Assembly (NCBI GenBank): GCA_963703955.1
Contig: CAVPGK010000012.1
Coordinates: 147,039 to 211,038, forward strand
Direction: 5' to 3'
Length of the DNA stretch: 64,000 bases
DNA from: Nitrospirota bacterium
GTDB taxonomy: Bacteria; Nitrospirota; Nitrospiria; Nitrospirales; Nitrospiraceae
Positions 24,719 through 27,831 of the stretch are shown in pieces. The translations under genes and the position numbers were made by a program. Each line of letters opens with the position of its first letter. The first letter of the stretch is position 1. The notes below the pieces were generated by a model that made no database searches, was not told the origin of the DNA, and saw only the letters and a program-made list of their open reading frames with translations.

Positions 24719-24888
24719 GCGGCCGGTCCTGCTACTGAGTCTGCGTGCGGAGCGCGTATTCCAACCTCGCACGCAGACTCCTCTCTCCTGACATCCCTCT
24801 CCTCTCCGGCAGTTGCGCTCTCACCGAGGAAGATGATAAGACACCACAGGCTGCTGATTGCCCCCGAACTGTCAGCAAGAAGACGGCG

Positions 24889-26567
24889 ATGCACATCGAT
24901 CCGAAGCACAAGAGTCATGACCTGACCGACGGCCCCGGCCGCGCGCCGGCCCGCGCCATGCTCAAAGCCGTGGGGTTCACCGATGACGATCTCGCGCGCC
25001 CGTTGGTCGGCGTGGCCAACACCTGGATCGAGGTCATGCCGTGCAACTATCACCTCCGCCGGCTTGCTGAGAAGGTGAAGGCCGGCATCCGCGCCGCCGG
25101 CGGCACGCCGATCGAGTACAACACCATCGCGGTGTCGGACGGCATCTCAATGGGCACGGAAGGAATGAAGGCCTCGCTCATCAGCCGTGAGGTGATCGCG
25201 GATTCGATTGAGTTGGTCGCGCGCGGACATTTGTTCGACGCGGTTGTAGCCTTGTCCGGCTGCGACAAGACGATCCCGGGCACCGTCATGGCGCTGGCAC
25301 GCTTGAACGTCCCGTCCCTGATGCTGTACGGCGGCTCGATCATGCCGGGCCGGTTCCAAGGTCACGACGTCACGATCCAGGACGTATTCGAAGCGGTCGG
25401 CAAGCACGCCGCCGGCAAGATGAGCCGATTCGGAACTGCAAAGATCTGGAAGACCACGCCTGCCCGGGACCCGGGCGCCTGCGGCGGGCAGTTCACCGCC
25501 AACACGATGGCGATTGCATTCGAATTTCTGGGCATCTCGCCGATGGGGAGGAACGGCGTGCCGGCCATGGACAAGCATAAGGATGAGGTGGCGTTCCAAT
25601 GCGGCCAGATGGTGATGGACCTGTTGAAGAAGGATCTTCGTCCGTCGCCAGATCATCACCCGGAAGTCGCTGGAGAACGCGATCGCCGCCGTGGCGACCA
25701 CCGGCGGCTCGACGAATGCCGTGCTGCATTTGTTGGCCATCGCGCGGGAAGCCGGCATGAAGTTGACGCATCGACGACTTCGACAAGATCAATCGGAAAG
25801 TCCCGTTGCTCGCCGACCTCAAGCCCGGCGGGCGATTCATGGCCGCCGATCTCTTTACGGCCGGTGGCACGACGCTGGTTGCGAAACGACTATTGGATGC
25901 CGGAATCCTGCATCCCGGCCAGCCGACGGTTACCGGGCGGACGATTGGCGAAGAAGCGAAACAGGCCATCGAGACGCCAGGACAACACGTGTTGCGGCCT
26001 CTTTCCAATCCCATCAAGACGACCGGCGGCCTGGTCATCCTCAAAGGCAACCTCTCGCCGGAAGGCTGCGTGGTAAAAGTGGCAGGTCATTCCATGATCA
26101 CGTTCCGTGGTCCGGCCAAGGTCTATGACCGGGAGGAAGACGCGTTTGCCGCCGTCAAATCTGGACAGATCAAGGCCGGCGACGTCGTCGTGATTCGTTA
26201 CGAGGGTCCCGCGGGTGGACCGGGCATGCGCGAGATGCTGGGGGTGACCGCCGCCATTGTCGGAGCAGGACTCGGAGACTCCGTCGCCCTGCTTACGGAC
26301 GGCCGCTTCTCCGGCGCCACGCACGGATTGATGGCCGGCCACGTCGCGCCCGAAGCCGTGAAGGGTGGTCCCATCGCTGCGGTCAAAGACGGCGACATGA
26401 TCTCATTCGACATCCCCGACCGTAAGCTGGACGTTGAATTGACCCAGAAGGAAATCAAGTCCCGACTCAAGAAGGTGAAACTGCCCGTTCCGCGCTACAC
26501 TTCCGGCGTCATGGCGAAATACGCCCGCCACGTGTCGTCGGCGTCGGAAGGAGCTGTGACAAGCTAA
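24889..26567 (+). CDS. ilvD: Dihydroxy-acid dehydratase with five apparent single-base insertions
   Basis: [37 protein letters not shown] and TDGRFSG spread over three frames. Confidence 0.9.
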
Positions 26568-26739: not shown

Positions 26740-26778
26740 AAAAAAGCGGGCGGCTTCTTCCGGAAGAAACCGCCCGCT
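26740..26778 (-). terminator. Rho-independent terminator
   Basis: Minus strand AGCGGGCGG-TTTCTTC-CG-GAAGAAG-CCGCCCGCT followed by a T run (A6 at 26740-26745 on +). Confidence 0.8.
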
Positions 26779-27173
26779 CTCGGCACTTGCGATGCCTGAA
26801 ACCTTTACGCTCTTTTAAAAGACCCACCGTTCAGCGGAAGGTTAACCTCTGATCCTTTTCGGACTGAGTGTCTCAAAGCCTCTTCAGGGTTCTCGTTATG
26901 TGAGGCTCCTGCCGCCTCATAAACCCTCATGAACCAGGTCTACATGTGACCGTTTGTGCCTATCGGCACTCTGGAGGTTCTTGAGGCCAGCGCATTGACT
27001 CTGAACAAAGAGCCGAGTTGCAGACGAGAGGCTCCTCTACGCCGTCAGTGGGCCATGCAGGTCAGGTGGAGTCAGGTCTTCCATACAAGACCTCCTCTTG
27101 TTAAACCCCCGGGGCTTCCTGATGGGCGCGCTCCATCGATCTCCCCCTGCACCTCCTCCAATTGATTCGGCGC
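26740..27173 (-). ncRNA. Candidate large structured non-coding RNA (about 435 nt), family not recognised
   Basis: Bounded by a TTGACA-N18-TAGGAT promoter and a strong terminator; the ATG ORFs found by eye are only 11, 15 and 41 codons; many nested helices. Confidence 0.55.
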
Positions 27174-27179
27174 AAACCC

Positions 27180-27209
27180 ATCCTAGTCTTCTCCGTTTGG
27201 ATCTGTCAA
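27180..27209 (-). promoter_or_regulatory. Sigma70-type promoter
   Basis: TTGACA (27209-27204), 18-nt spacer, TAGGAT (27185-27180); the same TTGACA-N18-TAnnnT layout occurs at 53243-53272 and 55750-55779. Confidence 0.6.
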
Positions 27210-27283: not shown

Positions 27284-27706
27284 TTACGAGGTGATGTATT
27301 TCTCCAGGTGCCCGATCAACTCTTCCTTCTCATCCAACATCAACGCAACCATGTCCCGCAGGGAGACGATTCCAAGGAACTCATCGCCGTTGAAGACCAA
27401 CAGGTGTCGGCATCTGTGCTCCTTCATCAGATTGAGACAGTGACCGGCGGTATCCTTAGGACCGACCGTTATCAAGTTTTCTGTCATCACGTCTTTGATC
27501 TTGACCTTTTCCGGATCTTTCCGCCTTCCGACGACTTTCATCATCAGATCCCGCTCCGTGAAAATCCCGATGATTTTGGAAGAGCGCGTGACTACCACCG
27601 ATCCGATGAATTCCTCCGTCATCACCATCGCCGCCTCTATCGCCGATCTATTTTCGTCGATCGTTGCAACCTTCCGTATCACCTTTAGTGAAATGTCTCT
27701 GCTCAT
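27284..27706 (-). CDS. Stand-alone tandem CBS-domain protein
   Basis: IGSVVV..GIFTERDL and RHLLV..GIVSLRD; GGAGGAGG RBS. Confidence 0.88.
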   Translation of the reverse strand: MSRDISLKVIRKVATIDENRSAIEAAMVMTEEFIGSVVVTRSSKIIGIFTERDLMMKVVGRRKDPEKVKIKDVMTENLITVGPKDTAGHCLNLMKEHRCRHLLVFNGDEFLGIVSLRDMVALMLDEKEELIGHLEKYITS

Positions 27707-27831
27707 GGCTTCCTCCTCCTTATGTGATCTAAAAATGAGTAAGGAGCCCCCCTGAACCAAATACTCAGAAAGAAACTGATACCTCGGACCGACATCCTAT
27801 CCTACGCGGGTCGATGCGGGCATGGTTCGGG

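Follow-up and report, generated by a model that had tools for sequence, protein, structure and literature searches.

OLE, GOLLD, HEARO, ROOL and the raiA motif are large structured bacterial non-coding RNAs, and SgrS/SgrT, SR1 and rnTrpL are dual-function and attenuator-derived small RNAs. Closer to the locus described here are the MgtL/MgtP leaders (Salmonella, E. coli mgtA, mgtCBR), in which, according to the portions of two papers available to us (PMC6460261, PMC11282234), a short open reading frame (ORF) with early acidic residues and prolines is joined to a long structured 5′ region, and the behavior of the ribosome can refold the RNA. On mgtL, early acidic residues together with proline lead to ribosome drop-off and the leader refolds (accessible text of PMC11282234, PMC6460261 and PMC12856214). 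Pro-Pro followed by an acidic A-site residue pauses E. coli ribosomes without EF-P whatever the preceding residue, and Pro-Pro followed by a basic residue pauses them weakly, with an acidic residue at −2; 2.8% of PPX motifs were paused overall in the accessible part of that study (PMC4140641). The sequence SPP stalls ribosomes in B. subtilis without EF-P, as stated in the available part of PMC12407103.

Here we describe an RNA of ~350–430 bases, common to most Nitrospira-type nitrifying bacteria, that we identified in a 64-kb window (the whole 64,000-nucleotide stretch of Nitrospirota contig CAVPGK010000012.1 that was analyzed). We conclude that this is a genuine RNA family not described before, a variant on the ribosome-pause leaders. 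Our best reading is that it works like an MgtL/MgtP-type leader but is mostly stand-alone. As in those leaders (judged from the same partial texts), a short ORF with a Shine-Dalgarno (SD) sequence, a start codon, early acidic residues and conserved Pro codons adjoins a long structured region, and EF-P and Rho are present. Unlike in those leaders, most copies examined end in a terminator hairpin of their own, several lack a co-oriented downstream gene, no Mg2+ transporter lies among the identified neighbors, Pro-Pro stands a fixed 12 nt before a long-range helix, and no terminator or ribosome-binding site (RBS) switch is predicted; a co-oriented regulated gene of consistent function is found only in a subset of copies, those preceding amoC. 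In the literature searched, where an entry confined to a supplement could be missed, we found no prior description of this RNA and no RNA regulator described in Nitrospira. A term search of the main texts of two recent motif surveys, as far as these were available (PMC11109978, PMC8632094), returned no mention of Nitrospira.

Results

Organization of the locus

The window copy lies on the minus strand. A TTGACA −35 hexamer (27204–27209; promoter scan and sequence check) and a TAGGAT −10 hexamer (27180–27185; promoter scan) are separated by an 18-nt spacer and would place the transcription start near 27173. The variable 5′ leader that follows (27098–27173) is ~15–100 nt long in homologues and does not align across clades; in the window it contains a hairpin (27137–27121) whose loop carries a self-complementary GC hexamer. 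Next come the SD sequence (27090–27097), partly paired in a local hairpin (27093–27074) in the window clade, and a micro-ORF of 15 codons plus stop (MEDLTPPDLHGPLTA; 27037–27084), in which the Pro-Pro codons 6–7 (27064–27069) form our proposed ribosome pause site. A long-range helix, P1, joins 27054–27046 to 26829–26821, its 5′ strand starting 30 nt after the AUG and its 3′ strand placed by alignment and covariation. P1 closes a ~200-nt inner domain (26830–27045), a branched rod of clade-dependent sequence that includes an extension of P1 (27044–27040 with 26836–26832) and a conserved GUGCC/GGCAC hairpin (26969–26956). An A-rich linker (26797–26820; alignment A2) leads to a conserved 3′ hairpin with 5 bp and a 5-nt CGCAA loop (26782–26796), immediately 5′ of an intrinsic terminator consisting of a hairpin and U run (26740–26779; fold of the window strand). 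Upstream, a CBS-domain gene on the same strand (27284–27760) ends 75 nt before the −35 hexamer. Downstream, ilvD (24745–26567, plus strand) is convergent and leaves no downstream gene on the strand of the RNA. A tblastn comparison with the L004 protein shows this ilvD split over three frames, with shifts near 25645 and 25769 that are probably assembly indels; the gene in the window is possibly a pseudogene.

The original prediction had read this tract as a densely structured, stand-alone, multi-domain non-coding RNA with its own promoter and terminator and no substantial ORF. Its quoted motifs (TTGACA, TAGGAT, the terminator, GTGCC/GGCAC and the CGCAA-looped hairpin) are all present where it placed them. 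Taken alone, the sequence gives weaker evidence for the transcription signals than claimed, with 1 promoter-like site found against 0.8 expected and the terminator absent from the output of the same scan of the tract; among homologues, TTGAY-N17–20-TA occurs upstream of 176/200 copies versus 0/200 in a control stretch inside the RNA. Likewise, the 436-nt minus strand folds better than shuffled sequences when the terminator is included (z-score −4.29; matched by 0/100 shuffles), but the excess is mild after its removal (−1.79; 4/100). Two of the predicted helices did not hold: TGGAGG/CCTCCA, proposed to close a ~190-nt domain, appears neither in the minimum-energy fold nor in the consensus of the five closest copies, and GTGCAGG/CCTGCAT appears in the single-sequence fold only, missing from that consensus. 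The best-supported helix, P1, had been missed. That the tract holds no substantial ORF is literally true, yet the SD sequence and the 15-codon ORF had been overlooked.

The self-complementary GC hexamer recurs in 51/169 leaders, often in a hairpin loop (including L205, L209, L215 and L220), and could allow loop-loop dimerization. The −10 region often lacks its final T, and a purine-rich block before its TA is conserved (e.g., L194, L205, L209 and L215); this pattern may mark a lineage-specific or stress promoter type.

Homologues across the Nitrospirales

The locus is a genuine conserved RNA gene, though not purely non-coding. By BLAST, the tract matched in 10/40 relatives, and all ten homologues carry an SD sequence, an AUG and codons reading M-x-D-L-(T/S)-P-P-(D/G). 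A strict pattern for this 5′ block matched 56/201 genomes of the order (reversed control, 2), and an independent 3′ pattern matched 105/301 genomes of the class (reversed control, 0), distributed over family f1 (102/156), f3 (2/5), f2 (0/66), f4 (0/2) and other orders (0/71). A profile of the 5′ block, R1, found the RNA in 19/22 genomes of f1 and 9/10 of f2 and, among 39 relatives, in f1 (18/24), f2 (4/5), f3 (4/5) and f4 (3/5); its one match among 117 genomes outside the order proved spurious on inspection. Homologues occur in 23 of the 30 Nitrospirales genera tested, the window's own genome included, so the search for relatives that the original prediction had called for came out positive. 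A broader profile, R2, recovered further divergent members within the order. Its weak matches in 4/49 genomes outside the order were rejected on inspection; L212, L334, L336, L337, L352 and L357 outside the order and L214, L254 and L351 inside it lack the SD sequence and start, the Pro-Pro or the downstream architecture.

A scan of GTDB contigs, which alone covered phyla beyond Nitrospirota, returned at least 119 stretches, and among the 80 listed, 78 come from the Nitrospira group and 2 from an uncultured bacterium. No credible homologue was found in the other orders searched, and no match in the viral contigs, phages and plasmids searched. From these profile, pattern and contig scans we take the range of the RNA to be the Nitrospirales, with no credible match in the other groups searched. 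Genomes carry 1–3 copies, many of them 2–3, and because the copies are kin these counts overstate independence. Some copies stand in tandem, each full copy with a separate promoter. Neighboring genes are conserved within clades and differ between them. The conserved order is promoter, variable leader, SD sequence and AUG, conserved codons, P1 domain, 3′ hairpin and terminator; the terminator-position hairpins of homologues share their place and have unrelated sequences, and such a hairpin ends most copies examined. A metagenome pattern tuned to the window clade gave 1 locus, so the window-clade consensus rests on 5 sequences. One of the loci used in the analyses of covariation, window-like consensus and ilvD context, L002, comes from an unpublished genome (G006); with L004 and L009 alone the outcome is unchanged.

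The window's own genome holds a second copy, the shorter paralogue L213 (G000:C16:54352, minus strand), with close copies L253 and L255 in G019 and G006; on one side it has what we take to be a small ORF resembling an antibiotic-biosynthesis monooxygenase, and on the other a convergent ORF that we take to be RtcB-like. In G130, two near-identical copies of the RNA with its downstream CBS gene (L173 and L174) lie 587 kb apart, marking a recent duplication.

The homologue set largely refutes the reading of the tract as chance complementarity in a GC-rich spacer or as a mobile repeat (MITE, REP or IS end), which we regard as extremely improbable. The folding score without the terminator and the change of context between clades would fit it; order-wide conservation with covariation (see below), the small number of copies per genome, their conserved neighbors within clades and the lack of matches in viral contigs, phages and plasmids all speak against it.

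Nor did the RNA match a known Rfam family. At the gathering threshold, Rfam 15 gave no match in the 64-kb window, which bears out the claim of novelty; at E ≤ 10 there were 8 sub-threshold matches, at chance level, and in 8 homologous loci 2 sub-threshold miRNA matches, both outside the RNA. We considered tmRNA, which resembles this RNA in size and in having a short ribosome-engaging ORF; it differs in possessing a tRNA-like domain and resume codon where the RNA here has an SD sequence and AUG. As the original prediction had held, no tmRNA hallmark is present: the locus has no match to RF00023, and a separate full-length tmRNA gene exists in 4/4 relatives (G001, G043, G011 and G028). In the window's own assembly, which is 82% complete, no tmRNA scored over the cut-off, and the single ARAGORN call was discounted for its tRNA-like tag. 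6S RNA was rejected, since RF00013 matches elsewhere, on C10 of the own genome (49.1 bits) and also in three relatives, and since the locus consensus is branched and not a rod. A type I toxin mRNA was rejected also: the micro-ORF is acidic and Pro-rich, and a hydrophobic ORF of 26–27 aa follows the terminator in one clade only.

A micro-ORF with Pro-Pro in fixed register to P1

The most conserved part of the RNA is a translated-looking micro-ORF that reads M-x-(D/E)-x-(T/S)-P-P-(D/G/K) after a strong SD sequence and AUG. Since the first sets of homologues had been selected on this 5′ block, we retested the micro-ORF on copies selected by the 3′ pattern alone (40 regions with 43 matches at loci new to the analysis, one match dropped at a contig end); these copies are mostly of family f1, and the 5′ strand of P1 was located in them by complementarity only. 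In 40/42 copies a start codon (39 ATG, 1 GTG) lies exactly 30 nt before P1, with Pro-Pro at codons 6–7 and D or G at codon 8. The remaining two are alike on inspection, giving a start and Pro-Pro in 42/42, and an SD sequence is present in all 41 copies matched by script. As a crude background, Pro-Pro occupies codons 6–7 in 13 of the 2342 long ORFs in the own genome.

A larger set of 202 copies, selected on the 5′ block and with the spurious L254 dropped, has D (111), G (72), K (16), R (2) or V (1) at codon 8, and in some clades K, R, V, N or I occupies this position (PPN and PPI occur). In 187 of the 202 the offset from AUG to P1 is 30 nt, and at least two acidic residues fall within codons 2–8 in 164, versus 340 of 2342 background ORFs. 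The spacing between P1 and the second Pro codon, counted from its first base, is fixed at 12 nt; a ribosome holding this codon in its P site (+1) would meet P1 at +13, at the mRNA entry channel. Exceptions exist: in L335 an in-frame start at −30 is missing, in L349 the start lies one codon earlier and no acidic residues precede the prolines, and L223 lacks both the SD sequence and AUG. The entry-channel stem-loops of dnaX and HIV, as described in the accessible part of PMC8861025, likewise have a helix 12 nt downstream of the presumed P-site codon. Unlike them, the RNA here has no conserved slippery sequence or alternative-frame ORF, and its helix is the long-range closure of a ~200-nt domain. 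Programmed frameshifting was rejected, an A-rich tract after Pro-Pro being found in family f2 only.

The pattern of substitution is that of a coding sequence. Codons 3–8 show synonymous changes; the spacing from SD to start varies, whereas the spacing from start to Pro-Pro changes only by whole codons; and the alternative starts GTG and TTG keep the frame, family f4 using a TTG one whole codon upstream. These observations bear on a second reading, that the RNA is a purely non-coding ornate RNA whose AUG and CCN-CCN are kept for RNA-level pairing with the G-rich tract. In its favor, much of the length is structured and non-coding, and the SD sequence is paired with codons 3–5 in the window clade, in the AGGTCTT/AAGACCT hairpin (27093–27074) of the original prediction. 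That hairpin is invariant in the 5 close copies, yet divergent copies with AUG and Pro-Pro intact have lost it, and codon 6 ends in U, which would perfect the pairing to the SD sequence, in only 2/178 copies. With the hairpin lost in divergent copies and this U avoided, SD pairing fails to explain the conservation of the codons; together with the third-position variation and the whole-codon spacing, this makes the purely non-coding reading very unlikely. The RNA does resemble OLE, GOLLD, HEARO, ROOL and raiA in its size, its own promoter and terminator, its many covarying helices, its restriction to one lineage and its apparent abundance as an independent transcript. It differs from them in that a conserved coding frame is present and is its most conserved part, and in that its inner domain is clade-specific. 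The description of the locus as a stand-alone multi-domain RNA therefore stands as regards conservation, covariation and transcription signals, and falls short in the coding-type micro-ORF and in the copies that serve as mRNA leaders.

Constraint at the protein level covers codons 1–8 and ends there. Peptides are 8–61 aa long (178 copies), the earliest stops being at codon 9; several copies carry single-base indels that change the frame past codon 8, and a later, apparently conserved G-P-P is P1 sequence retained out of frame. One 23-aa version is annotated as a gene, without a name, in a public protein collection, from which 4/5 micro-ORF peptides are absent; NCBIfam gave no match for 6 micro-ORF peptides. 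The clear coding-type conservation with an SD sequence and the annotated 23-aa version could suggest that the RNA is a messenger for a bioactive micropeptide, its structure merely stabilizing the mRNA. The variable lengths, early stops and frameshifts, the out-of-frame G-P-P and the empty NCBIfam search weigh against this, and we consider it highly improbable. SgrS/SgrT, SR1 and rnTrpL share with this RNA a stand-alone transcript, a small 5′ ORF and a terminator; here, by contrast, the peptide is unconserved beyond codon 8, the ORF runs into the main helix in a constant register, no seed or target was identified, and Hfq was not found.

P1 and the fold of the RNA

We measured covariation in an alignment of 46 sequences, on a structure that was named after the sequences had been seen. 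P1 and the 3′ hairpin together show double changes in 10/14 pairs, compared with a mean of 5.3 in shuffled alignments (0/500 as high), so the covariation called for by the original prediction is found, on a helix it did not name. The named structure pairs in 86% of cells and slid controls in at most 51%. The last two pairs of P1 fail in 30 and 32 rows, and we therefore define its core as 7 bp. The 3′ hairpin, the looped element at 26796–26782 that had been predicted, is paired in 91–96% of cells with double changes in 3/5 pairs. On a tree built without the P1 columns, P1 shows 12 coincident changes against a null mean of 6.4 (4/200 as high). Given no structure, RNAalifold recovered P1 in 29 f1 sequences, with a double change in 25/45 predicted pairs and a branched consensus fold, and in 5 window-like copies it found P1, the SD hairpin, the terminator and the predicted GTGCC-GATA-GGCAC hairpin. 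The distance between the P1 strands, ~190–200 nt, is conserved in the 3′-selected set. The inner domain is conserved within clades only and differs widely between them.

The 5′ strand of P1 has both local and long-range partners. In single-sequence ensembles it prefers a local hairpin to long-range P1 in 7/13 copies, which may point to switching or simply to what the energy model can capture. When the window copy was masked in silico to +30, P1 was retained; with masking to +42 the domain refolded. Across three modeled ribosome states, the terminator hairpin folds wherever the folded stretch held it whole, and the predicted opening energy of the amoC RBS changes in no consistent way with ribosome position in 9 copies, so that the models lend no consistent support to a thermodynamic switch of either element. 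A pseudoknot between the 3′ hairpin loop and an inner UGGGA was rejected, loop changes being unmatched by partner changes (by eye, alignments A2 and A3). The sequence of this loop differs between families. In two copies, L335 and L349 (genera g22 and g17), a U run directly follows the P1 3′ strand, the 3′ hairpin and a separate terminator are both missing, and the long-range helix may itself serve as terminator.

Genomic context and amoC leaders

L002 and L004 share the window arrangement with a convergent ilvD. Elsewhere the next co-oriented gene, after the terminator, encodes FtsK, a CBS protein, a 26–27-aa membrane peptide or others; a ClpX-like gene lies downstream of shortened copies. Among the copies of genus g18, some have neither 3′ hairpin nor terminator and continue into the amoC RBS (Pfam PF04896). 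We surveyed 30 amoC loci, one per genome, from 38 amoC-bearing genomes, and found the RNA as a leader in 6/12 loci of g18, 0/17 of g10 and 0/1 of g11. Where amoC was seen to be followed by amoA, the leader was present in 0/8 loci, a count for which 25/30 loci could be parsed and 2/6 leader loci had less than 1 kb of downstream sequence. The window's own genome gave no amoC match. According to a review, every comammox genome carries lone amoC genes, and such genes have been tied to stress and starvation in ammonia-oxidizing bacteria (PMC6311188, in the portion available to us).

In a g10 clade (L032, L033, L036, L041 and others), a conserved hydrophobic ORF of 26–27 aa with its own SD sequence follows the RNA ~400 nt after the AUG and ends in basic residues. 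Four copies (L198, L200, L248 and L026) are truncated to the SD sequence and micro-ORF, directly before a gene that presumably resembles a universal stress protein. A different conserved leader, comprising an SD sequence, a short ORF and a shared ~60-nt block, lies upstream of lone amoC in g10 (L276 and L280); it gave no match to profile R1.

These contexts bear on whether the RNA is an ordinary cis-acting attenuator leader of the MgtL/MgtP type, its stand-alone copies being leaders that end by termination, or remnants left after loss of the gene they once preceded. The leader before amoC in half of the g18 loci, the position of other copies before clpX-like, CBS, FtsK and membrane-peptide genes, the micro-ORF-only versions before other genes and the presence of Rho all agree with such a leader. 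Against it, the next gene is convergent in the window, L002 and L004, the downstream genes share no function, tandem full copies each have their own promoter, no antiterminator or RBS switch is predicted, and the leader is missing from amoC genes followed by amoA. On balance, we find an ordinary attenuator quite unlikely.

Evidence for transcription

A 2.1-kb query containing the homologue L205 matched in 20 sequencing runs from 7 studies, and we examined four of these, one per study, chosen for partial cover of the query. In all four, taken as RNA libraries, contigs start at query positions 1435–1439, 6–11 nt after the inferred start of the RNA. Contigs of runs X10 and X12 extend to 1803 and 1784, stopping a little before the terminator stem, with no other part of the query covered, and X12 also contains the leader of a second homologue. 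In run X8, contig depth is 231 on the RNA versus 4–6.5 on the next gene. Assembled contigs give no strand, ends or level, that X10 derives from RNA is a guess, and uncovered stretches (L205:600–1434 and the terminator region) were not counted as silence; the data are support, not proof, for a discrete and probably abundant L205 transcript.

Discussion

Overall, we consider it quite probable that the locus encodes an RNA that is transcribed and structured and that carries, coupled to P1, an ORF of the pause type that is translated. For the full reading, in which a Nitrospirales-wide RNA couples its fold to a pausing ribosome and so acts as a sensor, we see about an even chance. A ribosome would start at the strong SD sequence, make a 7-residue acidic peptide and pause or drop off at codons 7–8 with Pro7 in the P site, where P1 would abut the entry channel. 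A paused ribosome would leave P1 shut; read-through, if EF-P, charged tRNA-Pro and Mg2+ permit, would unwind P1 even where the stop lies at codon 9 or 10. Translation status would in this way set the conformation or lifetime of the ~200-nt domain. We infer a pause or drop-off with P1 intact from the published PPX stalling and mgtL drop-off together with the acidic codons 2–8; pausing, switching and output are all proposals, and what the RNA does after pause or read-through is the weak step of the mechanism. Where copies stand alone, as in the window, the RNA itself would be the product, most likely serving in protein binding or in regulation under stress or starvation. Where derived copies have lost the 3′ hairpin and terminator, the module would control or stabilize the mRNA of lone amoC or of another downstream gene.

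The cellular machinery narrows the possible outputs. EF-P, RNase E/G and Rho are present in 5/5 genomes (G000, G001, G047, G065 and G028) and RNase Y in 4/5; RNase J and Hfq were not found in any of the five, which removes two simple readouts. On this basis we rejected 5′ protection against RNase J, as well as an Hfq-dependent base-pairing small RNA, for which the variable 3′ hairpin loop also counts as a strike.

Alternatively, the RNA could hold ribosomes as a decoy or store, parking a 70S at Pro-Pro against P1 to store ribosomes or titrate EF-P in nitrifiers that grow slowly, with the domain beyond P1 docking on the ribosome or recruiting a release factor. The very strong SD sequence and fixed entry-channel geometry, the conserved distance between the P1 strands, the several copies per genome and, as a hint from one run, the high contig depth on the RNA would suit such a role. 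The poor conservation of the inner domain between clades would not, and the amoC-leader use argues for information passed downstream. Moreover, ribosomes carrying chains of 7 residues are more prone to drop-off than to staying bound. The mgtL case is one example, in the accessible part of PMC11282234. We therefore rate a ribosome-holding RNA as unlikely. A broader version, in which a stand-alone RNA class loads or parks a ribosome at Pro-Pro against its own helix and either stores ribosomes or reports elongation capacity, and in which comammox clade g18 grafted the module onto lone amoC so as to tie the supply of a spare AMO subunit to translation status, seems to us doubtful.

Nitrospira are the main nitrite oxidizers and, to our knowledge, the only known complete ammonia oxidizers. 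This RNA is spread across their order and is apparently well expressed. It combines a fixed geometry for ribosome pausing with the usual lack of anything downstream to regulate, a combination not seen in known leader-peptide systems. That the RNA has been reused before lone amoC bears on the role and control of singleton AMO subunits.
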